This document shows positions 4,116-64,000 of a stretch of DNA of 64,000 nt, piece after piece. The stretch is taken from the sequence record PV467748.1. The stretch is one strand, 5' to 3'. The notes beneath the pieces were generated by a model that was not told the DNA's origin, did not search any database, and was given only the letters and a program-made list of their open reading frames with translations. How positions within the stretch are numbered: the first letter of the stretch is position 1; each line of letters begins with the position of its first letter. The position numbers were made by a program, and so were the translations under genes. The stretch comes from a phage.

Positions 4116-4607
4116 ATGGAACTTACCGATATCACTAGGGCTTTTGAATCAGGTGACTTTGCACGCCCTAACCTTTTCGAAGTGGAAATTCCATTTCTTG
4201 GTAAAAACTTTAGCTTTAAATGTAAAGCAGCACCTATGCCGGCAGGCATTGTAGAAAAAGTACCGGTTGGCTACATGAACCGTAAAATTAACGTAGCTGG
4301 TGACCGTACGTTTGATGATTGGACAATTACCATTTATAACGATGATGCACATGACACTCGTCAAGCCATTGTTGATTGGCAGAATCTCTGTCATGGTATG
4401 ACCAATGAAATTACCGGTGCAGCACCTGCAGAATATAAGAAACAAGCAGTAGTTCGCCAGTTCCATCGTGACGGCAAGACTGTGACCAAAGAAGTTACAA
4501 TTTACGGCTTATGGCCTACTAACGTTGGTGAAGTCCAGATGGATTGGGATTCGAACAACGAAGTTGAAACGTTTGAAAGTACGTTCGCTATCGATTGGTG
4601 GGAATGA
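4116..4607 (+). CDS. 19: tail tube protein
   Basis: Start moved to internal Met (MELTDITRAFESGDFARPNLF) giving 163 aa as in T4 gp19; high similarity. Confidence 0.9.
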   Translation: MELTDITRAFESGDFARPNLFEVEIPFLGKNFSFKCKAAPMPAGIVEKVPVGYMNRKINVAGDRTFDDWTITIYNDDAHDTRQAIVDWQNLCHGMTNEITGAAPAEYKKQAVVRQFHRDGKTVTKEVTIYGLWPTNVGEVQMDWDSNNEVETFESTFAIDWWE

Positions 4608-4608
4608 G

Positions 4609-4616
4609 TATAAATA
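4609..4616 (+). promoter_or_regulatory. late promoter TATAAATA upstream of gene 20
   Basis: Exact TATAAATA, followed by a GGAGCTTCGGCTCC tetraloop hairpin at 4629-4642. Confidence 0.55.
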
Positions 4617-4664
4617 GAATTATCAAGGAGCTTCGGCTCCTTATCCCATTCATCGGAGACTCTA

Positions 4665-6239
4665 ATGGCAAACTTTAATACAATATTAAGTTTTCTTAAG
4701 CCATGGGCTAATGAAGACGAAAAAGAATATAAACAACAAATTAATAACAATTTAGAGTCTGTCACCGCACCTAAGCTTGATGATGGCGCTCGCGAAATTG
4801 AGACACAAGAGCAAAATATTCCTTATAATGCTCTTATGCAACAGATGTTTGGTAGTAATGAGCCTGAAGTTAAAAATACCAGGGAACTTATTGATACCTA
4901 CCGTAATTTAATGAACAACTATGAAGTCGACAACGCCGTACAGGAAATTGTGTCTGACGCTATTGTCTATGAGGATGATAAAGAAGTAGTTGCATTGAAT
5001 TTAGACGGGACAGAATTTAGTCAAGCAATTAAAGATAAAATCTTGGCCGAATTCAGTGAAGTTTTAAACCTTTTAAATTTCCAACGTAAAGGCACTGACC
5101 ATTTCCAACGCTGGTATGTAGACTCAAGAATTTTCTTTCATAAAATTATAAACCCTAAAAAAATGAAAGATGGCGTACAAGAGCTTCGTCGCTTAGACCC
5201 ACGCCAAGTCCAATATATTCGAGAAATCGTTACACGTATGGAAGATGGTGTTAAAGTTGTAGACGGATATCGCGAGTTTTTCGTTTATGATACAGGCCAT
5301 GAAAGTTATTGCGCTGATGGACGCATTTATTCGGCCGGGACTAAAGTTAAAATTCCTCGTGCTGCAGTGGTTTATGCACATTCTGGATTATTAGATTGTT
5401 GTGGTAAAAACATCATTGGCTATTTGCAACGTGCTATTAAGCCTGCAAACCAGCTTAAATTGATGGAAGACGCAATGGTCATTTACCGTATTACCCGTGC
5501 TCCCGACCGTCGTGTGTTTTATATCGATACTGGTAATATGCCTTCACGTAAGGCGGCAGCACAAATGCAACATATCATGAACACGATGAAAAACCGTGTT
5601 GTGTATGATGCTTCGACAGGTAAAATTAAAAACCAACAACACAATATGTCCATGACTGAAGACTATTGGTTGCAACGTCGTGATGGTAAAGCGGTAACAG
5701 AAGTTGATACAATGCCAGGTGCTACTGGTATGAGTGATATGGATGACGTTCTTTATTTCCGCACAGCACTTTACCGTGCGTTGCGTGTTCCTGAATCACG
5801 TATCCCTAGCGAGTCTAATTCTGGCGTTATGTTTGATGCTGGTACAGCAATCACTCGTGACGAATTAAAATTCTCTAAATGGATTCGTCAACTACAAAAC
5901 AAATTTGAAGAAATTTTCCTAGACCCGTTAAAAACAAACCTCATTCTTAAAAAGATTATTACAGAAGATGAGTGGGAAAAGGAAATAAATAATATTAAAG
6001 TTACGTTTAACCGTGATAGCTATTTCAGTGAAATGAAAGATGCTGAAATCATGGAACGCAGAATCAATATGCTAACGATGGCTGAACCATTTATTGGTAA
6101 GTATATTTCACATCAAACGGCTATGAAAGATTTCCTCCAAATGACCGACGAAGAAATTAATCAAGAAGCTAAGCAAATTGAAGAAGAGTCTAAAGAGGCT
6201 CGTTTCCAAAACCCAGATGAAGAAGAAGAGGATTTCTAA
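4665..6239 (+). CDS. 20: portal vertex protein
   Basis: 524 aa, same length as T4 gp20; synteny. Confidence 0.95.
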
Positions 6240-39849: not shown

Positions 39850-40400
39850 TAGATGGTCTCCAACTTAAGTTGTTTGGTAGTGGTAGCTTGGGTAACATCG
39901 CCTTTAACAATATAACACACTTGTTGGAACGACTTAGTCAAAAGCTCTTCGGCTTGACGATCGGCTTGTTCCTTTGTGTTATGGCGAGAATGAACTTCAA
40001 TCTTACCATTTTTAACGATAAGCACTTTCCAATCCGCAGTGGCTTTTACTGGTTTAGGCTCATTTTCAGGAATACTCACCGAGGCCAGTGGACGTACTAC
40101 TTCAATAAAGTAATCGAATTCATGGCCAAAAAAGCCTGAGGAATTAAAAAGAACAGCATTTGCATCATCAGGATTACCTGTGATTTTGCTCAGGTCAACA
40201 AACCTCAACTCATCGTATACACGAATTCGGCTTACACGTTCACGCCCATTATGGTAATCAATTTCAACTTCAAACGGATTCATACCTACATACTTGGCAA
40301 AAGCTGTATTGAGGCCATAAGCGCCGTTATTAGTGAATTTGTTTTTAGTGTATTCACTACCGAACTTATAAAACTTACGCTCTTCAAAGAACTTGCTCAT
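39849..40400 (-). CDS. hypothetical protein
   Basis: Start at MSKFFEERKF after GAGGAAATCGAA SD; early promoter upstream. Confidence 0.5.
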   Translation of the reverse strand: MSKFFEERKFYKFGSEYTKNKFTNNGAYGLNTAFAKYVGMNPFEVEIDYHNGRERVSRIRVYDELRFVDLSKITGNPDDANAVLFNSSGFFGHEFDYFIEVVRPLASVSIPENEPKPVKATADWKVLIVKNGKIEVHSRHNTKEQADRQAEELLTKSFQQVCYIVKGDVTQATTTKQLKLETI

Positions 40401-40430
40401 TTCGATTTCCTCATTTGTTTCGGTAGGACT

Positions 40431-40460
40431 ACTATACCACAGTCCTACCATGATGTAAAC
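40431..40460 (-). promoter_or_regulatory. early-type promoter (GTTTAC ... TATAGT) with -10 in the loop of a 9-bp hairpin
   Basis: GGTAGGACT / AGTCCTACC stem at 40422-40449 flanks the -10. Confidence 0.45.
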
Positions 40461-40462
40461 AC

Positions 40463-40741
40463 TTAAATTGCTTCGACAACTACCGTTTGTTTCTGGAAGT
40501 CCATTTTGCATGAAATAGCCAAAATGTGGTTATCAATTTTAAATGGAACGATTGCAAATGCTGCACCAGACGTGAGTTGGACAGTGATTGCATCAACTGC
40601 ATCTGGGAACATGATTTCCAGAATAGCAGACAAACGGCCGTGAACTTTTAATTCAATCGACGTGTCGACAGGTTCGTATAGGTAATCAGATACAATCTGA
40701 CTAAAAACTACTTTAACAATTTCAGAATAAGTAGGGAACAT
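40463..40741 (-). CDS. hypothetical protein
   Basis: 92-aa ORF. Confidence 0.45.
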   Translation of the reverse strand: MFPTYSEIVKVVFSQIVSDYLYEPVDTSIELKVHGRLSAILEIMFPDAVDAITVQLTSGAAFAIVPFKIDNHILAISCKMDFQKQTVVVEAI

Positions 40742-40748
40742 AATTACC

Positions 40749-40964
40749 TCAGTGTACTGTATGGACCTTCACGTTAACAATAAACCGGTCAACGACTTCA
40801 GTCAGAGGAACGAACTCAACATAGTACTCACCTTTGTAACGTTCATTCAAATCGTTACGGAGAGCGGCAAGCGAGTTAATGAGAGCAGGAGACATATTCT
40901 GTCCTACCAGTTTCTGAAGCTCTTTATAAGCTTCTTCTTCAACTTCATGGTGTTTGTTATACAT
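40749..40964 (-). CDS. hypothetical protein (start uncertain)
   Basis: N-terminus trimmed to avoid overlap with the well-supported upstream ORF. Confidence 0.35.
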   Translation of the reverse strand: MYNKHHEVEEEAYKELQKLVGQNMSPALINSLAALRNDLNERYKGEYYVEFVPLTEVVDRFIVNVKVHTVH

Positions 40965-41153
40965 AATGTTTTTCCAAGAAGGCAAGGAGTTCTGGCGCTG
41001 ATTTAAAAATACCACCATCGACCCTGTCTTCATCTTTATAGTCCATAACATCCAGGCCAATACGTCCATCAGTTAAAGGCCATACGCCGAAGAAAAAGCA
41101 TTTACGTTTTTCAATTTCTTCGATTGTACGAAAAATCTTTTCGATATTATTCA

Positions 41154-41154
<1 letters not shown>
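40957..41154 (-). CDS. hypothetical protein
   Basis: 65 aa; AGGTGA SD; start overlaps the pseT stop by one base. Confidence 0.5.
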
Positions 41155-42379
<1,225 letters not shown>

Positions 42380-42414
42380 AATAATTTCCTCAAATTTTAT
42401 AATCCGTAGGAGCA

Positions 42415-42443
42415 TTATACTCTGCTCCCAAGAGTTTGTAAAC
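42415..42443 (-). promoter_or_regulatory. early promoter GTTTAC-17-TATAAT
   Basis: Consensus-like hexamers on the - strand. Confidence 0.5.
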
Positions 42444-42550
42444 TACTTTCCAAAAAGACCATGCATACACATGCTGAACACAATCCCAAAACAAAAGAAT
42501 GCGGCGCCAAATCTAACGGCATCCCAACCGCAAACACATGTCTCAATCAT
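42443..42550 (-). CDS. candidate 35-aa single-pass membrane peptide, translationally coupled to Rz1
   Basis: Hand translation MIETCVCGWDAVRFGAAFFCFGIVFSMCMHGLFGK; GAGGAG SD; ATGA overlap with the Rz1 stop. Confidence 0.4.
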   Translation of the reverse strand: MIETCVCGWDAVRFGAAFFCFGIVFSMCMHGLFGK

Positions 42551-42837
42551 TTGCACTTCTCCTCTTTTAGTCCAGAACGATAATAACATAACATAGATTT
42601 CTGGTCTTGTACATATCTTTTTACGTCATTCAACCAAATGCGATGTTCTTGAGAGTCTTCAAATGGCATACCGACCCAAGCCTTACCATCGATTACCTTA
42701 ACCTGCCACTTAACATTATGTTCGGCAATAGGTTGTGGCCATGAAGGGTGGAGTTGTTGTTTAGGCGCTACAGGAACATCCTGGGCACATCCAACTAGCA
42801 ATCCAATAGATAACATTACAACAGCCAATTTAATCAT
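42547..42837 (-). CDS. o-spanin (Rz1-like outer-membrane lipoprotein)
   Basis: Signal peptide with lipobox (LLVGC); pseT.2 position of T4. Confidence 0.7.
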   Translation of the reverse strand: MIKLAVVMLSIGLLVGCAQDVPVAPKQQLHPSWPQPIAEHNVKWQVKVIDGKAWVGMPFEDSQEHRIWLNDVKRYVQDQKSMLCYYRSGLKEEKCK

Positions 42838-43187
42838 TCTGTGATGCTCCTGAAGTCTTCTGTAAAGGAATCGAAGGACTTGTTGATTTGTTTTTCGACC
42901 AATCCTGGCTTACTTGCCACCACGTGCGCCTTCTTCGAATCTTTACGGAGCTTTTCATTTTCTACCTTAATTTTATCCATTCGGGCATTCATTTCAGTAG
43001 TGCGGAATTCAATATCAGAGTATTGACCACGAAGGTCCTCTACAGCTTCAGCGTTCTGTTTAGCTGTTTGCTGGGTTGTTTTCAGTTCTTCAGTAAGGGT
43101 ATCAATACGGCTTGATTGATACGAAATAAGACTGTACGCGCCTACTGCAATGGCTCCGGCTAAAAGGTAAATACTTAATTTAGACAT
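42834..43187 (-). CDS. i-spanin (Rz-like)
   Basis: N-terminal TM helix then charged coiled-coil; pseT.3 position. Confidence 0.7.
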   Translation of the reverse strand: MSKLSIYLLAGAIAVGAYSLISYQSSRIDTLTEELKTTQQTAKQNAEAVEDLRGQYSDIEFRTTEMNARMDKIKVENEKLRKDSKKAHVVASKPGLVEKQINKSFDSFTEDFRSITE

Positions 43188-43675
43188 TTGGTAATAATCT
43201 CGATGATGTCATCACGTGACAGGGAATTAATAAGAACCGTTTTAGGATTTTCACACTGAATTTTATACGTTTCAAACATGAAACACAATTCTTCAGCGGT
43301 ATGGTAAGGACTTGAAATGCCAAGGCGATTAAACTTGTCGCTTAATGGGTCACAAATCAAATAGAACGTGATGCCTGAGATTTTAACATTAGGCTGGCTG
43401 ATGTTAATGAATACCTCGGCATCGTATTTGGAAAGGTTGTTTTGGAGAAACTCGACCATAGAGTTAACAGCTTCCGGCATGGCTTCACGCTTTTCTTCTG
43501 CATAACGGGTAGAGTATTCTTTTTGCTTAATTTTCTTTTTAGCATTTTTGGCTAAAGTAACACGAAGATCGGTCAGGTAACCTACTGCACGAGAACCTTT
43601 AAAAACTTGGATGCCGTCAGTAGAGTCACCAAAAGCCTTAACAACCATTTCGTTAGTAATCATTTGCATATTCAT
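43175..43675 (-). CDS. alc: Alc-like protein (host transcription inhibitor), assigned by synteny
   Basis: About 166 aa from an internal Met after AGGAG SD; sits between the spanins and rnlA as T4 alc does. Confidence 0.55.
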   Translation of the reverse strand: MNMQMITNEMVVKAFGDSTDGIQVFKGSRAVGYLTDLRVTLAKNAKKKIKQKEYSTRYAEEKREAMPEAVNSMVEFLQNNLSKYDAEVFINISQPNVKISGITFYLICDPLSDKFNRLGISSPYHTAEELCFMFETYKIQCENPKTVLINSLSRDDIIEIITKCLN

Positions 43676-43704
43676 TTGTTTTCTCCTCATTAGTTGGTAA
43701 GTCT

Positions 43705-43733
43705 ATACTAACACATCATGAGGAGATGTAAAC
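43705..43733 (-). promoter_or_regulatory. early promoter (GTTTAC-17-TAGTAT)
   Basis: Member of the repeated cassette family. Confidence 0.45.
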
Positions 43734-44881
43734 TACTCTACCACAATTTCTTTCAAATATTTTTCAGGGATTTGGGCTTTGTGGTTTTTCAAGAACACAG
43801 AGTTAATCTGGTCTACAACCATATCATAATTAATACCGCCTACGTACGCCTGCATAAGAATAGAGAACAGCCCTGGGAAGTCCTTAAGGATTAATTGACC
43901 TGTAACGGCGTAGTCCTTACGGTCACGACCCTTGAGCTGAGAATATGCTGCTTCTAACAAGGCCAATGATTGTTCTAGGTAATCTAAATGGATACGTTCA
44001 AAGGCATCGATTTTCTCGATAGCAAACGAATCCGTACTGAACAATCCACGAAGGTCATCGGTTCCACCTGCAACTACAACTTCAAACAAACGTTCGTTAT
44101 TGTTAATGGAATCCTTGGTATGATGCAGTGCACTGTACCAGGCCGTTTTGAGTTTAAAGAACGTACCATCTTTCAGTACAAAGATGAAACCTTCAATACC
44201 CTCTTGTTTACGGATGTTTTCTACGAAATCACCCTCAGTAAGGTCATAACTTTCAACCAAATGCTTACGCAACGCAGCGTCCTTAAACAGTTCAGCATAC
44301 GGAATATATTCACCTGTTTCATTATTACGAACGTTCAACAGGATAAGATTTGTTTCTTGGTAAGCCAGCACGATACGGTTGGTAGGTGCTACATATTCAA
44401 GGTTGCAGGTGTACCCTGCTTTGGTGATTTCTTCCAGTCGAGCAGCGAAGGCCTCGTTTTCAGGGAGACGAAGGAAACGTAAAGAATCATGTACCATTGA
44501 TGAATGGATAGAACCTTTAGATTTAACAGAAAGATACTGTCGGTCCATGAATGTAGAAATCAGAGAACCGTCTTCCTTAGCCATTACGAGGTCGATATTT
44601 TCCGGCGACAAATCCAGACCGATAGTCATAGGGTTTTCGTCGAGGTTAAAGAACTTTTGCATAGGACGAGCAGCAATACGTACCGGACCGTTCTCGTCCA
44701 TTTCAAACATAATGCCTCGGCACTCTAGTGCGCCGTCTTCCAACCAATCACTGTACGATGCATAGTTATAACTAAAGATGCGATAGTTGACTCCTAGCGC
44801 ACTCTGAAAGTCTTTAAAGAAGAACTTAGATTTAGTCGAGTTTTTAACCAGGGCCATCAAGTTATCATATAATTCAATCAT
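43733..44881 (-). CDS. rnlA: RNA ligase 1
   Basis: 382 aa; strong similarity to T4 Rnl1 (YRIFSYNYASYSDW, ALECRGIMFEMD). Confidence 0.92.
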   Translation of the reverse strand: MIELYDNLMALVKNSTKSKFFFKDFQSALGVNYRIFSYNYASYSDWLEDGALECRGIMFEMDENGPVRIAARPMQKFFNLDENPMTIGLDLSPENIDLVMAKEDGSLISTFMDRQYLSVKSKGSIHSSMVHDSLRFLRLPENEAFAARLEEITKAGYTCNLEYVAPTNRIVLAYQETNLILLNVRNNETGEYIPYAELFKDAALRKHLVESYDLTEGDFVENIRKQEGIEGFIFVLKDGTFFKLKTAWYSALHHTKDSINNNERLFEVVVAGGTDDLRGLFSTDSFAIEKIDAFERIHLDYLEQSLALLEAAYSQLKGRDRKDYAVTGQLILKDFPGLFSILMQAYVGGINYDMVVDQINSVFLKNHKAQIPEKYLKEIVVE

Positions 44882-45291
44882 TGCTTTATCCTATGTTGAG
44901 TATTCCAAGGTGGATTAAATTTCTTTATGAACATTGGCTCTTCAAGAGACATGGTCTCAACTGACATAGTTCCAAGTTCGTTAGTCATCGACAGATTAAA
45001 GCACTGCCGTGCATAGAACTCCACCTTTTTACCTGCCATTAATGCTTCATGAATCAGAATGGACTTAGTCGAATCTGACGTTTGGTCCTTACGATTAATA
45101 GCTGTACGGTAGTAGTTGATGCGCTTACGAAGATTTTTAGTCTTCCCGACGTAGACTAGTATATCATCAACCGCTATAGCATATATGACATTTTGTTTAT
45201 TTGGTACTGTGAGTGGAGCTATGGTGGCGTCATCTTGGAGTTCTAGGGTGACGTACTTGATAAAGCTAAATTCGTCTGCGATTTCTTTCAT
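44878..45291 (-). CDS. denA: endonuclease II (GIY-YIG)
   Basis: Start at MKEIADEFSFIKY; near-identical to T4 EndoII (VIYAIA...YVGKTKNLRKRINYYR). Confidence 0.9.
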   Translation of the reverse strand: MKEIADEFSFIKYVTLELQDDATIAPLTVPNKQNVIYAIAVDDILVYVGKTKNLRKRINYYRTAINRKDQTSDSTKSILIHEALMAGKKVEFYARQCFNLSMTNELGTMSVETMSLEEPMFIKKFNPPWNTQHRIKQ

Positions 45292-45299
45292 AGCAATAA

Positions 45300-45313
45300 G
45301 GGGCCGAAGCCCC
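45300..45313 (-). terminator. stem-loop / putative terminator after nrdB
   Basis: GGGGCC-GA-AGCCCC. Confidence 0.45.
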
Positions 45314-45318
45314 ATTCC

Positions 45319-46497
45319 TTAAAAATATTTCTTGTACGATGCCATTACTTTTTCATCGACATCGTTATCAATTTGTGCTACAAGGTAAGAACTGATTTCC
45401 ACTTCCTGAGGAGCAGCCTGTACAGCATCAGAGTTCAGGTATTCTCGAATCCAAGGATAAGGATGGCGAGTAGGGGCATCAGTAATAGGACATGGTAAGC
45501 CACATTGCTTCATACGAGAAACTGTCAGGTAATCGACAAAAGCACCCATGTTCTGAGTATTTAATCCAGGGCAAGTACCATCTTTGAACAGGTGAGTGGC
45601 CCATTCTTTTTCTTGACGGTTAACTTCCATGAAAATATCAACGGCTTCTTGTTCGCACTCTTGAGCAATTTTAACCCATTCATCCCCATCAGTACCAAGT
45701 TGGAGTTGACGAATAATGTACTGAGTACCCTTAAGGTGAAGCTGTTCATCACGTGCAATGAACTTCATAATCTTAGCATTACCTTCCATGATTTCCATGT
45801 TTTTATGGAAGTTAAAGGTGCATGCGAAAGATACATAAAAACGAATAGCTTCCAACGCGTTGATTACATGAAGGCAAAGGTAAAGGGATTTCATTAGCTC
45901 ACGCTTCCAATACATCTCATGCTCAATAGCATCTTCAATATCGTCTTCGTCTGCATTAATTTCTTTTTGGTATTCGATATCAGCTTTAGCATTCTGCCAA
46001 TAGCGAGTTTTCTCAATAACGTCATCATAGTAACGACCAATGGACTCGGCACGTTTCATGATAGCGTCGTCTAACAGAATTTCATCAAATACCTTAGATG
46101 GGTCTGTATAGAGGTTACGCATGATATGGGTATACGAACGAGAGTGAATGGTTTCACTAAAGGTCCATGTAGCCACCCATGTATCAAGGCTAGGGTCTGA
46201 AATCAAGGCTTGAAGTGCAGCAGAAGGAGCACGTCCCTGGATACTGTCCAGAAGTGATTGATACTTCAGATTATTGGTAAAAATATTTTGCTGGAATTGT
46301 GGAAGCTTATTAAACTGGGCAGCATCCATCATCAAGTTAACTTCCTCTGGACGCCAGAAAAAACTCAACTGCTTCTCACAAAGCTCTTCGAATACTTTAT
46401 GGCGTTGGATATCATAACGAGCAATACCCAATCCTGAACCAAAGAACATCGGTTCGACTAAAACATTAACTGGGGTAGTATTAAAAACTGTAGACAT
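45319..46497 (-). CDS. nrdB: ribonucleotide reductase small subunit (uninterrupted)
   Basis: Continuous ORF; di-iron ligand motifs; start at MSTVFNTTPV. Confidence 0.93.
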   Translation of the reverse strand: MSTVFNTTPVNVLVEPMFFGSGLGIARYDIQRHKVFEELCEKQLSFFWRPEEVNLMMDAAQFNKLPQFQQNIFTNNLKYQSLLDSIQGRAPSAALQALISDPSLDTWVATWTFSETIHSRSYTHIMRNLYTDPSKVFDEILLDDAIMKRAESIGRYYDDVIEKTRYWQNAKADIEYQKEINADEDDIEDAIEHEMYWKRELMKSLYLCLHVINALEAIRFYVSFACTFNFHKNMEIMEGNAKIMKFIARDEQLHLKGTQYIIRQLQLGTDGDEWVKIAQECEQEAVDIFMEVNRQEKEWATHLFKDGTCPGLNTQNMGAFVDYLTVSRMKQCGLPCPITDAPTRHPYPWIREYLNSDAVQAAPQEVEISSYLVAQIDNDVDEKVMASYKKYF

Positions 46498-46550
46498 GTT
46501 ATTCTCATTTGTTAGTGACTCATCCATGAGTCAATTATAATCAGATTTTA

Positions 46551-48806
46551 TTAAAGCTTACAAGCTGCGCAATCATCGGCTTTAGGAGTTTCTAATTCAT
46601 AATCATCAGTACCAGAGCCATCACGGGTATTGTGGTAGTAAAAATTCTTGAGCCCATAATACCATCCGTACAGCAGGTCATCAAGCATTACCGACATAGG
46701 AACTTTTCCTTTTGGGAAAATCTGTGGGTCGTAATATGTATTAGCTGATGCTGATTGACACACCCATTTCAACGCTATTGCCACTTGGGTAAGATAAGGT
46801 TTATTACCTTTCTTAGCAAGGGTCCAAGCATAATCATACAACCCTAGGTTATGTTCTACATTAGGAACTACCTGACGGAAGTTACCTTCTTTAGATTCTT
46901 TAATACTTACCGGGCCACGTGGAGGTTCGATACCGTTTGTAGAGTTGGAAACCTGGCTGCTTGATTCACACGGCATAAGTGCTGATAATGTGCTATTACG
47001 GATGCCATGTTTAGCCAAGTCTTCCCGCAACGACGTCCAGTCACAAACATAGTTAGGGGCTGCGATTTGGTCAATCTTTTTATTGTACCAGTCGATAGGT
47101 AATTCGCCTCGAGACCATTTAGTGTCTGAATAATACTCGCAAGGTCCTTTTTCTTCGGCCAACTTGATGGATGCTCGGATAAGTCCATATTGTAATCTCT
47201 CAAACAATTCATGAGTTAAATCGTTAGCGTCTTCATAAGAAGCAAAGTTGCTTGCTAACCAAGCGGCATAGTTCGTAACACCAACGCCCAGGTTACGACG
47301 TTTCTTAGCCTTCAGAGCTTCAGGAACAGGATAATCTTGGTAGTCTAACAAGTTATCAAGTGCACGGACTTGTACTTCAGCAAGCTCGTTAATTTTGTCT
47401 TGGTCCTGCCAATCGAAATTATCCAGCACAAATGCAGACAACGTACACAATCCGATTTCAGCGTCCGGACTATTCACATCAGTAGTCGGGATAGCAATTT
47501 CACAACACAAGTTGCTCTGGCGAATAGGAGCTTTTTCACGAATAAATGGTGTGAAGTTGTTAGTGTTATCAACGAACTGAGGATAAATTCGTGCAGTGCC
47601 TGAACGTTCAGTCATGAACAATTCAAAGAGGTCACGTGCTTTAATACGTTTCTTACGAATACTAGGGTCTTTTTCTGCGGCTTCATACAATTCACGGAAA
47701 CGGTCTTGGTCTTCGAAATAAGAATGGTAAAGCTCACCACCCATTTCATGAGGACTAAACAGGGTAATATAATCATTTTTACCGAAACGTTCCATCATAA
47801 GGTCGTTCATCTGGATTCCGTAGTCCATATGGCGAATACGGTTCTCATCGACTCCTTTGTTGTTTTTCAGAACGAGCAGATTTTCAACTTCCAAATGCCA
47901 AATAGGATAATAAGCAGTAGCAGCGCCGCCACGGATTCCACCTTGTGAACATGATTTAACAGCAGTCTGGAAATGTTTCCAGAATGGAATAACGCCTGTA
48001 TGTTTGACTTCACCCATGCCAATACGAGAACCTTCAGCACGAATCATACCAACGTTGATACCAATACCTGCACGTTTAGAAATGTATTCAATTATTGAGT
48101 TAGCAGTTTTGTTAATAGATTTCAGTGAGTCGCCTGCTTCAATAACCACACAAGAACTAAATTGACGGGTAGGTGTACGTGCTCCAGCCATAATAGGAGT
48201 CGGTAATGAAACCTGACGGGTACTTACAGCATCATAAAAACGAATAATATGGGCTAAACGATTACCCGGCTCGTCTTGGTGTAAGGCCATGCCAATACAC
48301 ATGATAGCGAACTGAGGGGTTTCGTAGATTTTACCGGTTGTTTTATCTTTAACCAGATATTTCTCTTTAAGCTGCATCGCCCCAGCATAAGTCAATTCGA
48401 AATCGCGTTCATGCTTTATATGAGATTCTAAGAAAGTAATTTCTTCTGCAGAATATCGAGACAGCAATTCGGGGTCATATTTACCTTCGTTAACACAATA
48501 GGAAATATGGTCAATAAAACTACGTGGTTCGAACTGGCCATAAACTTCTTTACGCAGTGCAAACATCAATTCTTTTGCAGCCACATATTGGTAATCAGGC
48601 TCTTCAACCGAGATAAGGTTGGCTGCTACCTTAACAGTCAGATTCTGGATATCTTTGGTAGTCATACCATCACGAAGATGAGATTTGATTTCTTCATATA
48701 ATTTATAGGGGTCGATTTGGGTTCCTTCACAGCCCCAAGTCAGAACTTTAATAATTTTTTGTGCGTCAAAATCTTGGGATACACCACTACTTTTTTGTAC
48801 TTGCAT
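46551..48806 (-). CDS. nrdA: ribonucleotide reductase large subunit
   Basis: 751 aa; active-site NLCCEI motif; C-terminal CxxC. Confidence 0.95.
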   Translation of the reverse strand: MQVQKSSGVSQDFDAQKIIKVLTWGCEGTQIDPYKLYEEIKSHLRDGMTTKDIQNLTVKVAANLISVEEPDYQYVAAKELMFALRKEVYGQFEPRSFIDHISYCVNEGKYDPELLSRYSAEEITFLESHIKHERDFELTYAGAMQLKEKYLVKDKTTGKIYETPQFAIMCIGMALHQDEPGNRLAHIIRFYDAVSTRQVSLPTPIMAGARTPTRQFSSCVVIEAGDSLKSINKTANSIIEYISKRAGIGINVGMIRAEGSRIGMGEVKHTGVIPFWKHFQTAVKSCSQGGIRGGAATAYYPIWHLEVENLLVLKNNKGVDENRIRHMDYGIQMNDLMMERFGKNDYITLFSPHEMGGELYHSYFEDQDRFRELYEAAEKDPSIRKKRIKARDLFELFMTERSGTARIYPQFVDNTNNFTPFIREKAPIRQSNLCCEIAIPTTDVNSPDAEIGLCTLSAFVLDNFDWQDQDKINELAEVQVRALDNLLDYQDYPVPEALKAKKRRNLGVGVTNYAAWLASNFASYEDANDLTHELFERLQYGLIRASIKLAEEKGPCEYYSDTKWSRGELPIDWYNKKIDQIAAPNYVCDWTSLREDLAKHGIRNSTLSALMPCESSSQVSNSTNGIEPPRGPVSIKESKEGNFRQVVPNVEHNLGLYDYAWTLAKKGNKPYLTQVAIALKWVCQSASANTYYDPQIFPKGKVPMSVMLDDLLYGWYYGLKNFYYHNTRDGSGTDDYELETPKADDCAACKL

Positions 48807-48869
48807 AATTTCCTCAATATGTTAGGTTCTACAATTATTCTATCATAGAACCTGTTAAGCATGGACTGA

Positions 48870-48877
48870 TATTTATA
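48870..48877 (-). promoter_or_regulatory. possible late promoter (TATAAATA on the - strand) upstream of nrdA
   Basis: Reverse complement is an exact TATAAATA. Confidence 0.3.
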
Positions 48878-48934
48878 GAATGAAATTCAGTCCGACCATA
48901 ATAACCAAAAACAGAGTACAGATTATTTGAATTT

Positions 48935-48938
<4 letters not shown>
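48873..48938 (-). CDS. possible 21-aa hydrophobic leader peptide coupled to td
   Basis: MKIQIICTLFLVIMVGLNFIL; ATGA overlap with the td stop; may be chance. Confidence 0.2.
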
Positions 48939-50620
<1,682 letters not shown>

Positions 50621-54988: not shown

Positions 54989-57900
54989 ATGGCCGATATT
55001 TTAAAACCTGCATTCCGTGCTACATCCGGACTCGATGCTGCGGGCGAGAAAGTTATCAATGTTGCCAAAGCCGATTACAATGTATTAGATGATGGCGTCA
55101 ACGTTGAATTCTTTATAGATGAGAACACCATCCAGGCGTACGACGAGACGCGCGGATATAAGAAAGGGTTTGCAGTAATCCATGACCAACGTATCTGGGT
55201 TGCTCAACGTGATATCGATGCTCCAGCAGGAACCTTTGTACCTGGTTATTGGACTGCTACCCGTACTGACCCTAAATGGATTACTGTAGCATCTCCTACA
55301 CGCCAGCTGGCTTCCGGTGAATATATTGCTGTGGATTCCGCTGCTAGCTTTACCACATTTACCCTGCCTCCTAACCCTACTGATGGCGATACCGTTGTAA
55401 TTAAAGATATCGGCGGTCGTGTAGGTTATAATGAAATCAAGGTCCAATCTAGTTCTGCTCCAGGTGGTGGTAATCAGAAAATTGTCCGTTTTGGTAACCA
55501 GTTCACTGAGACCTTAATTACGAAGCCTTTTTCCTATAATATGATTATCTTTGCCAACCGTCTTTGGCATTTCTGGGAATCAGGTAATGAAGAACGTGGT
55601 ATCCGTGTAGAACCTAACACCGCTCAGTTCCAAGCTCAAGCAGGCGATAATGTTCTCCGTCGTTATACTTCAGGTGCAGTAATTAAGTTTACTCTTCCTA
55701 AGTATGCGAACCAAGGTGATATTATTAAAACCGCTGATATCGATGGTTTAGGAAGTAAGTTCCACTTAATTGTTGAAACGTTTGATGCTTCATCTTCATT
55801 AGGTAAGCTTGGTCAGCATAGCATGGAATTCCGTACCTCCGGCGATGGATTCTTTGTTTATAACTCTACCGAAAAATTATGGTACGTTTGGGACGGCGAC
55901 CTTAAAACCCGTTTACGTGTAATTCGCGATGATGTTGAGCTCTTGGCTAACGAAAGTGTTATTGTTTTTGGCCCTAATAATACAACACCACAGACGATTA
56001 ATATCACATTACCTACAGGCGTAGCCCAGGGTGATGTCGTTAAGATTGCTCTGAACTATCTCCGTAAAGCTCAGACGGTAAATATTAAGGCTGCCGTAGG
56101 AGATAAAATAGCTTCTTCGGTTCAATTGCTCCAGTTCCCTAAACGTTCTGAATATCCGCCAGATACTGAATGGGTTCTGAATGACGTATTGACCTTCAAT
56201 GGCAACTTAAGTTATACTCCGGTTATTGAACTTAGCTATATAGAAGACACCGCTACAGGTGGCAAATATTGGGTTGTTGCTCAGAACGTTCCTACTATAG
56301 AACGTGTGGATTCTAAGGACGATTTAACCCGTGCTCGCCTCGGTGTTATTGCTCTGGCGTCACAAACGCAAGCAAACGTCGACCATGAAAATAATCCTGA
56401 AAAAGAACTTGCAATTACTCCACAGACTTTAGCTAATCGTGTAGCGACTGAATCTCGTCGTGGTATTGCTCGTATTGCTACTACTGCTCAGGTGAACCAG
56501 GATACAACCTTCGCATTCCAGGACGATTTAATTATTTCTCCTAAGAAATTAAACGAACGTACTGCAACCGAAACTCGTCGTGGTGTTGCTGAAATTGCTA
56601 CGCAAGTTGAAACTGATGCCGGCATAGATGATACCACAATCATCACTCCTAAGAAGCTACAAGCGCGCCAGGGTTCGGAAAGTCTTTCAGGTATTGTAAC
56701 ATATACCTCTACCGTAGGAACCACTCCTGCGACTGCTAGAGACACTGTAGGTACTAACGTTTATAATAAGAACGTAGGCAATTTGGTTATTTCTCCTAAA
56801 GCACTTGACCAGTATAAAGCTACTCAAGTTCAACAGGGTACAGTATATCTTTCTAACCAATCCGAAGTTAACGCAGGTCAATCTGCAAGTGGATTTGCTA
56901 ACAGTGCTGTTTCTCCTGAAACATTACATGCTCGTGTGGCTCTTGATACTCGTACAGGGTTAATTGAAATTGCTACGCAACAGGAAACTGATACCGGAAC
57001 AGATTATACTCGTGCAGTAACGCCTAAAACGTTAAATGATAGGAAAGCTACGGAAGGATTGACTGGTATTGCTAGAATTGCAACACAGGTAGAATTTGAT
57101 GCAGGTACGTTAGATAATGTTATTTCAACTCCGTTGAAAATTAAAACAAGATTTAATGATACTGCTAGAACTTCTGTCTCAGCAGCCAGTGGTTTGGTTG
57201 AATCAGGAACCTTATGGAACCATTATACACTAGATATTAGAGAAGCAAATGAGACTCAACGTGGTACTGCTCGCCTGGCGACCCAGACCGAAGTCAACGT
57301 TGGTACCGATGATAAAACCATCATCACTCCTTTGAAATTACACTCTAAAAAATCTACTGAAAGCTCTGAAGGTATTATTCGTGTTGCAACGAATACCGAA
57401 ACAACCGCAGGAACTTCTAAAGTTTTGGCTGTAAGCCCTTCTGGTTTAAAATATGTAGTACAGACCGAAACCACTTGGGAAGCTACTGCACTTCGTCGTG
57501 GATTTGTTAAACTAACCGAAGGTGCTTTAACCCATTCAGGAAATAAAGTTACCGGTTCCGGTGTTAAATTTAACTCAGGTACAGGCCTTTATGAGAACGA
57601 TGATACTGTTCTGAACGCAGCGAACTATCCTAAAACGGGTTATGCGGTTTCATCTTACGAGATGAATAAAACCTTACAGAACTTTTTACCTATAAATGCT
57701 ACGGCTGTGAACTCCGAGAAATTAGATGGCCTAGATTCACTCCAGTTCATTCGTAGAGACGTCGACCAAACGGTTAATGGTTCTTTAACCCTGGCCAAAC
57801 AATTGAACCTGGCGGCTCCTCTGGTGTCTTCTAGTACTGCTAATATTACCGGCAACACTATTTTAGGTTCTCTGGAAGTAACCGGGAATTCTACTTTTAA

Positions 57901-59032
57901 AAATGATGTATCTGTTAGCTCAGGTAAATCTATTAAATTTGTAGGACCCCAGTCTGGCGCAGGTTCTTGGGATTCTCAGGCAACTAATTTTGCACCTATT
58001 TTCTCTGAGATAAATTCTACTGTTGATGCTAGTTATCACCCTATTGTTAAGCAACGACTAGGGCAAGGTACTTTCTCTTTAGGTACTTTAAATGACGGCT
58101 CCGGCGATTTTAAAATCCATCATATCAGCGGTGCTTTAAAATCTTCCTACTGGACCTTTAATACGACTGGTGACTTTGCTGTTAATAGTGGTTCCATTAG
58201 TATTTCTAAGAATGCTAATATCACAGGTATAACCACTTCTAACGGTGTTTCTACAACCACACTAAATGCTTCTGCTCTGTCTTCATTACAAAACGTAACT
58301 ACTTCAGGTACTATCGTTTCTACCGGACAGGTATCGGCAAATAATGGTTTGGTTGCTCAAAAATACGTTCGTTCTGTTGGTGTTAAACCTACATTAGCAT
58401 CCCAGGCCCCTACTGCAGAAACAGTTGGCTTCTGGTCTGTTGATATCAATGATTCGGCTACATTTAACCTGTTCCCTGGTTATTGGACGATGAAAACTAA
58501 ACGCCAGGTTAATATCGATACGGTCCAAACTAAACCTGCCGGTGTTTCTGATGAGATATGGAATGCTTCTGGTTGGTTGACAGAAACGGGTGCATTTAGT
58601 TCCCCGGCCATTCGTTATCGTAACGAAGACGGTAGTTTTGGTGACGAGGTTCTCGGTACATCAGGTCAGAAATTACGTGGTACTTGGTTTGATTATTCTG
58701 TTCGTGATAAGGAAGTTAAATATCCTGGTACGTTAACTCAGTTTGGTAATACTCTGGATTCATGTTATCAGGATTGGGTGTGCTATCCTACAGGATTGAA
58801 TGGCGGTACTATTCGTTATACTCGCACCTGGCAGAAGAATAAAAACGCATGGACTACGTTCTCTATGGTCTATACCGCAGATAACCCTCCTTCTGCGGAA
58901 GAGGTTGGTGCATTACCTGCTGATAACGCTACAATGGGTAACATTACAATCCTTGATTGGTTACGTATTGGTAACGTTCGTATTATTCCTGACCCGGTCA
59001 CTAAATCCGTTAAGTTTGAGTGGATTGAATAA
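54989..59032 (+). CDS. 34: long tail fiber proximal subunit
   Basis: 1347 aa; extensive similarity to T4 gp34, including the C-terminal NATMGNxTIxDxLRIGNVRI block. Confidence 0.95.
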   Translation: MADILKPAFRATSGLDAAGEKVINVAKADYNVLDDGVNVEFFIDENTIQAYDETRGYKKGFAVIHDQRIWVAQRDIDAPAGTFVPGYWTATRTDPKWITVASPTRQLASGEYIAVDSAASFTTFTLPPNPTDGDTVVIKDIGGRVGYNEIKVQSSSAPGGGNQKIVRFGNQFTETLITKPFSYNMIIFANRLWHFWESGNEERGIRVEPNTAQFQAQAGDNVLRRYTSGAVIKFTLPKYANQGDIIKTADIDGLGSKFHLIVETFDASSSLGKLGQHSMEFRTSGDGFFVYNSTEKLWYVWDGDLKTRLRVIRDDVELLANESVIVFGPNNTTPQTINITLPTGVAQGDVVKIALNYLRKAQTVNIKAAVGDKIASSVQLLQFPKRSEYPPDTEWVLNDVLTFNGNLSYTPVIELSYIEDTATGGKYWVVAQNVPTIERVDSKDDLTRARLGVIALASQTQANVDHENNPEKELAITPQTLANRVATESRRGIARIATTAQVNQDTTFAFQDDLIISPKKLNERTATETRRGVAEIATQVETDAGIDDTTIITPKKLQARQGSESLSGIVTYTSTVGTTPATARDTVGTNVYNKNVGNLVISPKALDQYKATQVQQGTVYLSNQSEVNAGQSASGFANSAVSPETLHARVALDTRTGLIEIATQQETDTGTDYTRAVTPKTLNDRKATEGLTGIARIATQVEFDAGTLDNVISTPLKIKTRFNDTARTSVSAASGLVESGTLWNHYTLDIREANETQRGTARLATQTEVNVGTDDKTIITPLKLHSKKSTESSEGIIRVATNTETTAGTSKVLAVSPSGLKYVVQTETTWEATALRRGFVKLTEGALTHSGNKVTGSGVKFNSGTGLYENDDTVLNAANYPKTGYAVSSYEMNKTLQNFLPINATAVNSEKLDGLDSLQFIRRDVDQTVNGSLTLAKQLNLAAPLVSSSTANITGNTILGSLEVTGNSTFKNDVSVSSGKSIKFVGPQSGAGSWDSQATNFAPIFSEINSTVDASYHPIVKQRLGQGTFSLGTLNDGSGDFKIHHISGALKSSYWTFNTTGDFAVNSGSISISKNANITGITTSNGVSTTTLNASALSSLQNVTTSGTIVSTGQVSANNGLVAQKYVRSVGVKPTLASQAPTAETVGFWSVDINDSATFNLFPGYWTMKTKRQVNIDTVQTKPAGVSDEIWNASGWLTETGAFSSPAIRYRNEDGSFGDEVLGTSGQKLRGTWFDYSVRDKEVKYPGTLTQFGNTLDSCYQDWVCYPTGLNGGTIRYTRTWQKNKNAWTTFSMVYTADNPPSAEEVGALPADNATMGNITILDWLRIGNVRIIPDPVTKSVKFEWIE

Positions 59033-60237: not shown

Positions 60238-60885
60238 ATGGCAGATTTAAAATTAGGTTCTACAGCAGGAGGTTCGGTATTATGGCACCAAGGTAATTTC
60301 CCCTTAACGCCTGTATCAAATGACCTTCTTTACAAAACATATAAGGTTTATACCGAGTATAATAAACCACAAGCAGCTGATAATGATTTCGTTTCAAAAG
60401 CTAACGGTGGTAATTATAAGAATACCGTGTATTTTGAAAAAGGTTTGACCTTTAATGATACTAATGGATATGGTATTAAATTAGGAGCAAGAACTGGCGG
60501 AGCACCGTTCACAGCTTCTTTCCGTATTAAAGGCGCTTTTGGATATGAAACGGAAGATGGTACACCGTTCGTTATATTTGACCCGAATACGGCAGTTGGT
60601 GCTAAACGCCTCACAGTAATGGGTGATTCATTATTCCGCCAAGTATATGATGAATCAGGTCGTGTATTCAGCCCCGGCAACACCCCTACTAAAGCTCAAG
60701 TTGGATTGTCATTAGTAGATAACGCAAAACAGGTCCAAATAAATAATACTAATATGCAAACAATGACTGGGGTACTTGCGGCTCCTAACTTCATTTCATT
60801 AAATCCGGCCTCTGACGCAGGACATGTTCCGCGTTTCGACCAGATTGTTATTAAAGATTCTATCCAAGATTTTGGTTATTATTAA
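60238..60885 (+). CDS. 36: long tail fiber distal connector
   Basis: 215 aa; synteny. Confidence 0.9.
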   Translation: MADLKLGSTAGGSVLWHQGNFPLTPVSNDLLYKTYKVYTEYNKPQAADNDFVSKANGGNYKNTVYFEKGLTFNDTNGYGIKLGARTGGAPFTASFRIKGAFGYETEDGTPFVIFDPNTAVGAKRLTVMGDSLFRQVYDESGRVFSPGNTPTKAQVGLSLVDNAKQVQINNTNMQTMTGVLAAPNFISLNPASDAGHVPRFDQIVIKDSIQDFGYY

Positions 60886-60893
60886 GAGGCATT

Positions 60894-63800
60894 ATGGCTA
60901 CTTTAAAACAGATACAATTTAAAAGAAGTAAAGTAGCTGGTGTACGTCCTACGCCAGCGCAGTTGGCTGAAGGCGAGCTGGCTATTAACTTAAAAGACCG
61001 TTTGTTATTTACCAAAGATGACACTGGAGCGATTATCGACCTTGGCTTTGCTAAAGGTGGTAATATTGACGGTAACGTTATTCATAATGGTAATTACAAT
61101 CAAACCGGTGATTATACCCTGAATGGTACTTTTACCCAAACTGGTGATTTTAATTTAACAGGTATTGCTCGTGTAACTCGCGATATTATTGCCGCAGGTC
61201 AGATAATGACTGAAGGTGGAGAACTTATTTCTAAGAGTACCTCAACTTCTCACCTTCGTTTCTTTGATGGCAATGACCGTGAACGTGGCATTATCTTTTC
61301 TCCTAATAATGCAGGGGCAACCAACCAAGTAGTTAATATTCGTGTACAAGATTATTCTACCGCAAGCGAAAGCACTTATGCATTTTCAGGCGCCGGTGTA
61401 TTTTCTTCTCCTGTAGTTTTTGGATGGAAATCTGTATCAACTCCCGTAATTTATACTAATAAAGTTATTACAAATGGTAAAGTTGCCGGCGATTATGATA
61501 TCTATTCATTGGCCGATAATACCCCATTGGCAGAAAGTGAAACAGCTATTAACCATCTCCGTGTTATGCGAAATGCTGTAGGCGCGGGTATATTTCACGA
61601 AGTTAAAGATAATGACGGAATAACCTGGTATGCTGGAGATGGATTGGACGCTTATCTTTGGTCATTTACATGGTCAGGTGGATTGAAAGCCGGTCATTCT
61701 ATTTCCGTAGGCACCCCAGGTAACTCTAAAGGATATTCTGAATTAGGAAATGCTTCAATTGCTCTTGGCGATAATGACACCGGGCTAAAATGGCATCAGG
61801 ATGGATATTTCCATACAGTAAACAACGGCACGAGAACTTTCCTGTACAGCCCAGCAGAAACCACCAGTCTTAGAAAAATGGTTATGGGGTATTCTACTAA
61901 CGGAACCGATTTAACTACTCCTCCTACTGAAAACTATGCTCTTGCTACTGTTGTTACTTACCATGATAATAACGCGTACGGTGACGGTCAAACTCTTTTA
62001 GGGTATTATCAAGGCGGTAATTATCACCACTATTTCCGTGGTAAGGGCACTACAAACGTTAACACCGCTGGCGGTTTGTTAGTTACTCCTGGTAATATTG
62101 ATGTTGTAGGTGGTTCGGTTAATATTGATGGTCGCAACAACGCTTCGACTCTTTTGTTCAGAGGAAATACAACAGGAAGTAGTTCAGTTGATAATATGAC
62201 TATCAGCGTTTGGGGTAACACCTTTACTAATGTCGCCGGTGACCGCAAAAACGTAATGGAAATATCTGATGCCGTTGGTTGGATGCATTATATTCAGCGT
62301 AAGACTGATAATACAGTCGAAGCCCATTTAAATGGCGGCATGAATGTAAACGAAAGCATCAACGTCGGCAGAGAAGTTAACGCCTCCGGCACTATTGCTG
62401 GTAATGCTGTCAATGCCCTTAGAATTTGGAACGACGACTACGGTGCCATTTTCCGCCGTTCAGAAAACAGTCTTCATATTATTCCTACTGCTTTTGGTGA
62501 AGGTAAAACCGGTGATATTGGCCCACTTCGTCCATTTAGTTTGGCTTTAGATACAGGTAAGGTCGTTATTCCTGACCTAGATTTGAGTTATGCTTCTTTT
62601 GCAGCAAACGGCTATATTAAATTCGGTGGCCATGGTGCAGGCGCTGGTGGTTATGATATTCAATATGCACAAGCAGCTCCTGTTTTCCAAGAAATTGACG
62701 ATGACGCGGTAAGTAAATATTATCCTATTGTCAAGCAGAAATTCTTACAAGGAAAAGCTGTTTGGTCTTTAGGTACTGAAATTAATTCCGGTACTTTTGT
62801 TTTGCATCATTACAAAGAAGACGGGACCCAAGGTCATACATCAAGATTTAATGCCGATGGTACAGTTAACTTCCCGGATAACGTACAGGTTGGTGGCGGT
62901 GAAGCTACTATTGGCAAAAATGGTAACATCTGGTCTGATATCTGGAAAACGTTTACTTCTGCCGGTGATGTAACCAATCTTCTTGGTGCTGTCTATAGCC
63001 GTGTTTCTAAAGAAGGCGACACGATGACCGGCCGCTTAACTCTTAAAACCAACTCAGATGCTGTGGTTATTGATTATCCAGCAGATGAAGCGGGTTATGT
63101 TAAGGGTAAAAAAGGTGGTGCTGATAACTGGTATGTCGGTAACGGTGGTGCTGATAATGGTTTAGCCTTCTGGAGCTTCCAATCCCAAGGTGGTATTAAT
63201 ATTAACCCTAATGGCGAGGTTATTTTAGCCCCACAAGGTGTTGCAATGTTCAATATAAACCGCGACCGTATTCATATGAACGGTGCTAACTGGATTGCAC
63301 ATAAATCTGGTGCATGGGGTGACCAATGGGGTTTAGAAGCACCTTATTTCCTTGAGTTTGGTAGTGTGGGTGAAGACACTTATTATCCCATTATTAAAGG
63401 CCGATCTTTAATTAGTGGTCAGGGTTATACTACTTCTGTTGATTTAGGCATGCGTCGTACTCCACAAACATGGGGACAAGCGATAATTCGAGTAGGTAAT
63501 GCCGAGGGTGGCGACGGTCCTGTAGGTATTTTCGAATTCCACTCTAGCGGTTTATTTTACGCCCCGACTTTAGTCCAGACTCCTGCCATTGGTGTTGGTA
63601 CTGTTAACGGATTAGGCTCTCCTAGTATTGCTATCGGTGATAATGACACAGGATTATCACATGGTGGCGATGGACGAATTAATATGGTTGCCAATGGTAT
63701 GCATATTGCATCTTGGGCTAGCTCTTACCATATCCATGAAGGTCTTTGGGATACCACTGGGGCCTTGTGGACTGAAACAGGAAGAGCTATTATTTCTTTT

Positions 63801-64000
63801 GGTCATTTAGTCCAACAAAACGATAGCTATTCAACATTTGTTCGTGACGTTTATGTTCGTTCTGATATTCGTGTTAAAAAAGACCTTGTTAAATTTGAAA
63901 ATGCTTCACAGACACTTTCAAAAATTAACGGTTACACTTATATGCAGAAACGTGGCCTAGATGAAGAAGGTAATCAGAAATGGGAACCTAACGCCGGTTT
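60894..64000 (+). CDS. 37: long tail fiber distal subunit, 3'-truncated by the window end
   Basis: Open frame from ATG 60894 to the window end (absent from the ORF track because there is no stop); N-terminus MATLKQIQFKRSKVAGVRPT typical of gp37. Confidence 0.9.
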   Translation, partial: MATLKQIQFKRSKVAGVRPTPAQLAEGELAINLKDRLLFTKDDTGAIIDLGFAKGGNIDGNVIHNGNYNQTGDYTLNGTFTQTGDFNLTGIARVTRDIIAAGQIMTEGGELISKSTSTSHLRFFDGNDRERGIIFSPNNAGATNQVVNIRVQDYSTASESTYAFSGAGVFSSPVVFGWKSVSTPVIYTNKVITNGKVAGDYDIYSLADNTPLAESETAINHLRVMRNAVGAGIFHEVKDNDGITWYAGDGLDAYLWSFTWSGGLKAGHSISVGTPGNSKGYSELGNASIALGDNDTGLKWHQDGYFHTVNNGTRTFLYSPAETTSLRKMVMGYSTNGTDLTTPPTENYALATVVTYHDNNAYGDGQTLLGYYQGGNYHHYFRGKGTTNVNTAGGLLVTPGNIDVVGGSVNIDGRNNASTLLFRGNTTGSSSVDNMTISVWGNTFTNVAGDRKNVMEISDAVGWMHYIQRKTDNTVEAHLNGGMNVNESINVGREVNASGTIAGNAVNALRIWNDDYGAIFRRSENSLHIIPTAFGEGKTGDIGPLRPFSLALDTGKVVIPDLDLSYASFAANGYIKFGGHGAGAGGYDIQYAQAAPVFQEIDDDAVSKYYPIVKQKFLQGKAVWSLGTEINSGTFVLHHYKEDGTQGHTSRFNADGTVNFPDNVQVGGGEATIGKNGNIWSDIWKTFTSAGDVTNLLGAVYSRVSKEGDTMTGRLTLKTNSDAVVIDYPADEAGYVKGKKGGADNWYVGNGGADNGLAFWSFQSQGGININPNGEVILAPQGVAMFNINRDRIHMNGANWIAHKSGAWGDQWGLEAPYFLEFGSVGEDTYYPIIKGRSLISGQGYTTSVDLGMRRTPQTWGQAIIRVGNAEGGDGPVGIFEFHSSGLFYAPTLVQTPAIGVGTVNGLGSPSIAIGDNDTGLSHGGDGRINMVANGMHIASWASSYHIHEGLWDTTGALWTETGRAIISFGHLVQQNDSYSTFVRDVYVRSDIRVKKDLVKFENASQTLSKINGYTYMQKRGLDEEGNQKWEPNAG

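Follow-up and report, generated by a model that had tools for sequence, protein, structure and literature searches.

The distal subunit of the long tail fibre (gp37) encoded at the end of the window, by which we mean the whole 64 kb stretch of phage DNA that was analysed, very probably terminates in a self-cleaving chaperone of the S74 type and forms a T2-like tip, in which a cleaved gp37 (predicted) would be capped by a separate gp38 adhesin. To judge from its homologues, gp37 would be cleaved at Arg989-Ser990, with the release of ~111 residues (990 to ~1100). An S-D-x-R-x-K motif had been placed near residue 990 by the initial annotation, and this was exact: the peptide quoted there, VRSDIRVKKDLVKFENASQTLSKINGYTYMQK, corresponds to gp37 V988-K1019 (nt 63855-63950), and the motif occupies Ser990-Lys995, inside the stretch 63840-64000 to which it had been assigned.

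Such a chaperone at the end of gp37 is already known, common, and textbook biology, and a published phage has exactly the same 46 residues as the part of it that lies within the window. This finding adds nothing to the knowledge of T2-like fibres and is useful for annotation and for fibre engineering. Its value for annotation is that the fibre can be assigned to the style of T2, T6, and S16, which is predominant among T-even phages, and not to that of T4. With a fibre of this style, host range is therefore to be sought in the small gp38 adhesin expected just beyond the window and not in gp37, whose mature form should be annotated as ending at Arg989 (predicted).

Gene 37 and its genomic setting

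The window originates from a Dhakavirus-like T-even phage. A 10-kb stretch of its core genes (40000-50000) shares 94-95% DNA identity with WG01, QL01, Bp7, and IME281, with IME540 also among the nearest phages, while the best DNA identity for the distal 2 kb of gene 37 (62000-64000) is 89.8%, to WG01. The Dhakavirus species or strain of origin may be absent from the collections searched. An exact-protein look-up of gp36 gave no match, and exact 37-47-mers taken from the window end matched no viral, metagenome, or genome contig. No Rfam family at the gathering threshold and no tRNA gene were found in the whole 64 kb window, and because Rfam matches were absent, the td/nrd region (~40-50 kb) has no recognisable group I intron. 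In Bp7, a relative, the annotation of the matching region includes I-TevIII and an intron-like endonuclease.

The fibre genes are arranged in the order 34, 35, 36, and 37, as in WG01 and T4. Gp34, the proximal fibre subunit (window 54989-59032), comprises 1347 aa, compared with 1289 aa in T4. The ATG of gene 37 is found 8 nt after the gp36 stop and is preceded by AAGAGG, which resembles a Shine-Dalgarno sequence. From this ATG to the window end the frame contains no stop, and the remaining two forward frames are full of stops over the same stretch (Table 1). The N-terminus of the product, MATLKQIQFKRSK, matches that of T4 gp37 and of T-even gp37, and a Pfam search of the protein returned three families, namely Gp34_trimer, gp37_trimer, and, below its cut-off, Peptidase_S74.

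Table 1. Location of gene 36, gene 37, and the features predicted at the end of gp37 (positions in the window).
Feature	Position	Strand	Basis and remarks
Gene 36, fibre subunit to which gp37 attaches	60238-60885	+	215-aa ORF; collinear with the annotated gene 36 of WG01 and T4
Gene 37, long tail fibre distal subunit	60894-64000	+	5' 1035 codons; cut by the window end; predicted full length ~1100 aa
D985-V-Y-V-R989, predicted C-terminal five residues of mature gp37	63846-63860	+	Alignment with S16 (DLNVS) and the fPS phages (DVYIR)
Predicted scissile bond Arg989-Ser990	63858-63863	+	Ser990 at position 1 of PF13884; alignment with the second Ser of the S16 site and, weakly, with GA-1; comparison with T5 pb1
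S990-D-I-R-V-K995, Ser nucleophile and activating Lys 5 residues downstream (predicted roles)	63861-63878	+	Sequence, alignments, and spacing in T5 pb1
Chaperone domain, N-terminal 46 residues (990-1035)	63861-64000	+	Pfam Peptidase_S74 match; identical to WG01; ~65 further residues beyond the window

The gp37 of WG01 (YP_009323449, 1100 aa) aligns with that of the window over all 1035 residues with no gap and with ~90% identity. Residues 951-1035, a stretch that takes in the cleavage motif and the 46 N-terminal residues of the chaperone, are 100% identical, whereas identity ranges from 74 to 94% per 50-residue block over residues ~450-950 and falls to 74-80% in three segments of the shaft and tip (451-500, 651-700, and 901-950). 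The closest protein is the partial gp37 of phage ECO4, with 93% identity over the distal 435 aa. At the level of sequence, the distal shaft and tip (~450-950) are thus a new allele and not the same gene as in WG01, whereas the chaperone motif itself is nothing new. Beyond residue 1035, the WG01 protein continues for 65 aa and ends in ...IAELKSEIEELKALIKSLLK. The end of the window gp37 would likewise comprise ~65 more residues, rich in heptads, and would probably read ...AELKSEIEELKAL[IV]KSLLK.

Across T-even phages, conservation of the chaperone-coding end of gene 37 (window 63600-64000) far exceeds that of the tip immediately upstream. A chaperone of at least 95% amino-acid identity is present in ~176 phage records, while the distal 2 kb is covered to at least 80% in only nine. 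The chaperone end serves as a conserved junction for the swapping of adhesin modules, a role that its strong conservation fits.

Two sequences among the relatives depart from the usual layout of gene 37. In Escherichia phage vB_EcoM_005 (NC_055783; positions 4400-5060 of locus L008), the gene is broken: a 754-aa ORF ends early, ~200 tip residues are absent, and the chaperone is spread across two frames, the first ending in ...YMQKRWN at a stop and the second reading GTDEEGNQKWEPNAG...KSLLK; an intact gp38 follows downstream. Either the fibre gene is defective, or the break stems from errors of assembly or from frameshift errors. A protein of 477 aa from a 165,631-bp contig (P0007) resembles a "mini" gp37, in which the N-terminal ~300 residues seemingly run directly into the last segment of the tip and a complete chaperone, with most of the shaft seemingly absent. 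Mis-assembly may have produced it, or it may represent a short distal fibre that occurs naturally.

The probable chaperone domain and T2-type tip

A search against the Pfam profile Peptidase_S74 (PF13884; profile length 58, gathering cut-off 22 bits), proposed by the initial annotation as a check on its claim of an S74-type chaperone, did return a match at gp37 residues 990-1026, with Ser990 at profile position 1. The match covers profile positions 1-35 of 58, and its score (17.3 bits, E=0.006) lies below the cut-off because the window end truncates the domain, of which 46 of ~111 residues are present. In the gp37 of WG01, the same profile scored 45.4 bits (E=1e-11) at residues 990-1049, in the full-length gp37 of the relatives L002, L005, L006, and L007 45.5-48.8 bits, and at the C-terminus of T2 gp37 56.5 bits. 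The tip and chaperone of WG01 also matched PDB 6F45, the gp37 tip of Salmonella phage S16 (E=2.4e-45), which provides homology to a domain whose cleavage has been shown experimentally. Taken with the truncated match in the window, these results support the S74-type chaperone.

Members of the family were taken to form the very C-terminal end of trimeric fibre or spike proteins, to comprise ~100-135 residues, and to end in a coiled coil. A chaperone profile built from six diverse chaperone regions matched 6F45 (E=1e-34), the auto-processing domain of MYRF (7DC3; E=1.6e-7), and the tail fibre 8JOV (E=4e-6). Its match to the released neck-appendage chaperone of GA-1 (3GUD) was weak (E=0.069), residue 1 of that chain being the one aligned with Ser990, and the chaperones of K1F and T5 gave no match to this profile at E<=1. 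The AlphaFold2 monomer model of ECO4 gp37 (P0001), computed from a 15-sequence alignment, was poor (mean pLDDT 49.1, pTM 0.22); within this poor model, a long terminal helix spans residues 445-481 with a pLDDT of ~80-89.

In six of the six relatives considered (WG01, L002, L005, L006, L007, and T2), a gp38 gene can be found ~30 nt past gene 37 and is followed by the holin gene t. The encoded adhesins comprise 257-265 aa and match PF05268 GP38 (E 1e-62 to 1e-81) as well as PF21721 Gp38_N. A T2-type gene 38 would be expected at the same place in the genome from which the window derives. Bp7, a close relative, is a reference phage for gp38 adhesins (PMC12032242). In T2 and T6, the C-terminus of gp37 is proteolytically cleaved and gp38 then caps the fibre, an arrangement said to predominate among T4-type phages (PMC3157838). 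The T2-like tip with a separate gp38 that had been proposed for this DNA is supported, its gp38 part by the six relatives.

A cleaved chaperone could also be combined with a different kind of tip. The end of gp37 might itself bind the receptor, as does pb1 in the L-shaped fibre of T5, or the downstream gene might encode a non-T2 adhesin, for instance an RB43-type protein with nothing but the N-terminal attachment domain in common. We consider this improbable. Chaperones of the S74 type do occur on many fibres that lack a separate adhesin, the 1116 phage records that match the chaperone domain including those of T5-like phages; gene 38 of the phage lies beyond the window end; and the gp38 of RB43-like phages is homologous to that of T6 over only ~50 N-terminal residues (PMC3157838). 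Nevertheless, WG01, which has a full PF05268 adhesin, shows 100% identity over the 39 residues that precede the cleavage site, a T2-type gp38 is present in every one of the six relatives with the same gp37 end, and conservation extends to the docking strand, DVY[IV]R. A T2-like tip capped by gp38 remains the reading that we prefer. Since the distal gp37 is a new allele and the genome shares only ~94% DNA identity with deposited Dhakavirus genomes, gene 38 could carry a new combination of hypervariable loops, and hence an undescribed receptor specificity, which is possible if somewhat doubtful.

The predicted cleavage site and its conservation

The codons of the putative nucleophile and its activator lie at 63861-63863 (Ser990) and 63876-63878 (Lys995), and Asp991 and Arg993 of the motif are also present. 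The domain thus starts with a Ser followed by a Lys at +5, a spacing equal to that of Ser1264 and Lys1269 in T5 pb1. The residues directly before the scissile Ser, DVYVR (985-989), conform to the docking-strand pattern D-[VL]-[YN]-[IV]-[RS], for which DVYIR of the fPS phages, DLNVS of S16, and NVYIR of T2 may be compared. Once gp37 is cleaved, they are predicted to form the beta-strand of the tip on which gp38 docks. As the window reads DVYVR^SDIRVKK in alignment with the sites of S16 and the fPS phages (^ marks the cut), the bond between Arg989 and Ser990 is the one predicted to be cut.

An alignment of the window protein with WG01, T2, L006, and the metagenome protein P0014 (alignment A3) showed V-Y-x-R to be invariant, and both here and in an alignment of 15 sequences (A4) the motif always has its Asp, Arg, and Lys and nearly always its Ser. 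In the larger alignment, D-x-Y-x-R and the subsequent D-x-R-x-K are found in all sequences, and 14 of the 15 have the intervening Ser. Among database homologues, 14 carry the site as D-[VIL]-Y-[IV]-R^S-D-x-R-x-K, and 111-118 residues follow the motif in the 13 homologues with a full-length C-terminus. P0014 (528 aa) has the motif DVYIR^CDRRLKI, in which Cys replaces the nucleophilic Ser at residue 412. This could be a natural thiol nucleophile, a non-cleaving variant, or a sequencing error.

Such natural variation of the nucleophile, Cys standing for Ser in P0014, lends some colour to a second alternative, according to which the chaperone is a degenerate or non-cleaving remnant and gp37 stays at full length. 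It is highly improbable, given that Ser990, Asp991, Arg993, and Lys995 are all conserved and that many viable phages carry an identical fragment, with the ~176 records mentioned above reaching at least 95% amino-acid identity in the chaperone. The reading of this site as one of autocleavage is supported by homology with S16 and with T2 and T6, and it is on this homology that the predicted cut depends.

Only four residues of the motif are fixed, and on the window alone the Pfam score is under the cut-off, so that S-D-x-R-x-K might be imagined to have arisen by chance in a T4-type gp37; this is scarcely credible, because the homology spans all 46 residues and continues in the relatives, the motif is expected only ~0.006 times in gp37 from its composition, and the T4 homology ends at residue 655, with Collar and Phage_fiber absent. 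When all 64 kb are translated in six frames, the motif occurs once in an open frame, and the only second match lies in a frame interrupted by stops. This single occurrence, the low expectation, and the start of the Peptidase_S74 profile at Ser990 together indicate that the match at Ser990 is no accident. The expectation, the S74 scores of the relatives, and the limit of T4 homology led us to reject both a motif arisen by chance and a gp37 of the T4 type.

The mechanism proposed for the self-cleaving chaperone and its T2-like tip is modelled on characterised homologues and takes as its starting point the observed sequence and homology, the conserved Ser/Lys pair, and the architecture of the relatives. 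The trimeric C-terminal domain, with its alpha/beta part and coiled coil, would nucleate the three gp37 chains and bring them into register. When the fibre tip is correctly folded, Lys995 would activate Ser990, which would then attack the Arg989-Ser990 peptide bond, so that the residues from 990 to ~1100 would leave each chain. The new C-terminus of gp37, ...RDVYVR, would form a flat trimeric tip, on which one separate gp38 adhesin could dock through its tryptophan-bearing N-terminal domain. Contact with the outer-membrane receptor would then be made by gp38 and not by gp37.

Comparison with characterised fibre systems

T4 gp37 occupies the same gene position as the window gp37, and their N-terminal two thirds are homologous, with 35% identity over window residues 1-655. 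BLASTP homology stops at window residue 655, which corresponds to T4 residue 758, and no homology to the T4-type tip (T4 gp37 ~780-1026) was found in the window protein. The tip of T4 gp37 has Collar and Phage_fiber repeats and lacks an S74 domain, whereas a Pfam search of the window gp37 gave no match to Collar or Phage_fiber. T4 gp38, a separate chaperone for the folding of gp37, comprises 183 aa and matches no adhesin family, and in T4 it is gp37 itself that acts as the adhesin (PMC3157838). The initial annotation had also noted that the ORF is still open at the window end, past the 1026 aa of T4 gp37. This is true numerically, the ORF having 1035 codons in the window, but carries no weight as evidence for a T2-like tip. 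A comparison of length with T4 is uninformative because the distal thirds are not homologous and examples of T2-type gp37 span 1080-1341 aa; we therefore rejected the greater length as an argument and regard it as a coincidence.

The K1F endosialidase (3GW6), T5 pb1, the GA-1 neck appendage (3GUD), and the ICA domain of eukaryotic MYRF (7DC3) belong to the same Pfam family as the window chaperone, share its Ser and Lys at +5, and are cut N-terminal to the Ser. They are distant in sequence from the window gp37 and have their own receptor-binding or enzymatic domain and no separate adhesin cap. Upstream "folding sensor" residues are present in the chaperones of K1F and T5, where they are Asp and Arg. 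In T5 pb1, the Thr1263-Ser1264 bond is cut and Lys1269 activates Ser1264, while an S1264A variant stays uncleaved and cleavage requires correct folding of the trimer (PMC4690869).

T2 gp37 has a C-terminal Peptidase_S74 domain, its site NVYIR^SDIRLK aligns with that of the window, and a 262-aa PF05268 gp38 is encoded next. It differs from a gp37 of WG01 length in comprising 1341 aa, 241 aa more, and in its chaperone of 99 aa, with only ~36% identity where the C-terminal regions align. That T2 gp37 undergoes proteolytic processing is cited as established (Drexler et al., 1986, cited in PMC3157838).

In S16 gp37, the last 113 residues are described as autocleaved at DLNVS^SDRRIKK (PMC7917993, citing Dunne et al., 2018, doi 10.1016/j.str.2018.07.017). 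According to the same account, cleavage uncovers a docking surface for the tryptophans in the N-terminal domain of gp38 (PMC7917993). The corresponding site in the fPS phages, which are related to S16, is DVYIR^SDGRLKI (PMC7917993). S16 gp37 differs from the window protein in having a Ser and not an Arg before the scissile bond (DLNVS compared with DVYVR), and its mature tip before the site is divergent and shorter by an 11-residue gap. It resembles the window and WG01 proteins in its homologous tip and chaperone and in the shared ...V[SR]^SD.R.KKD, and a release of ~111-113 residues and a C-terminal coiled coil as in S16 would be expected for the window protein.
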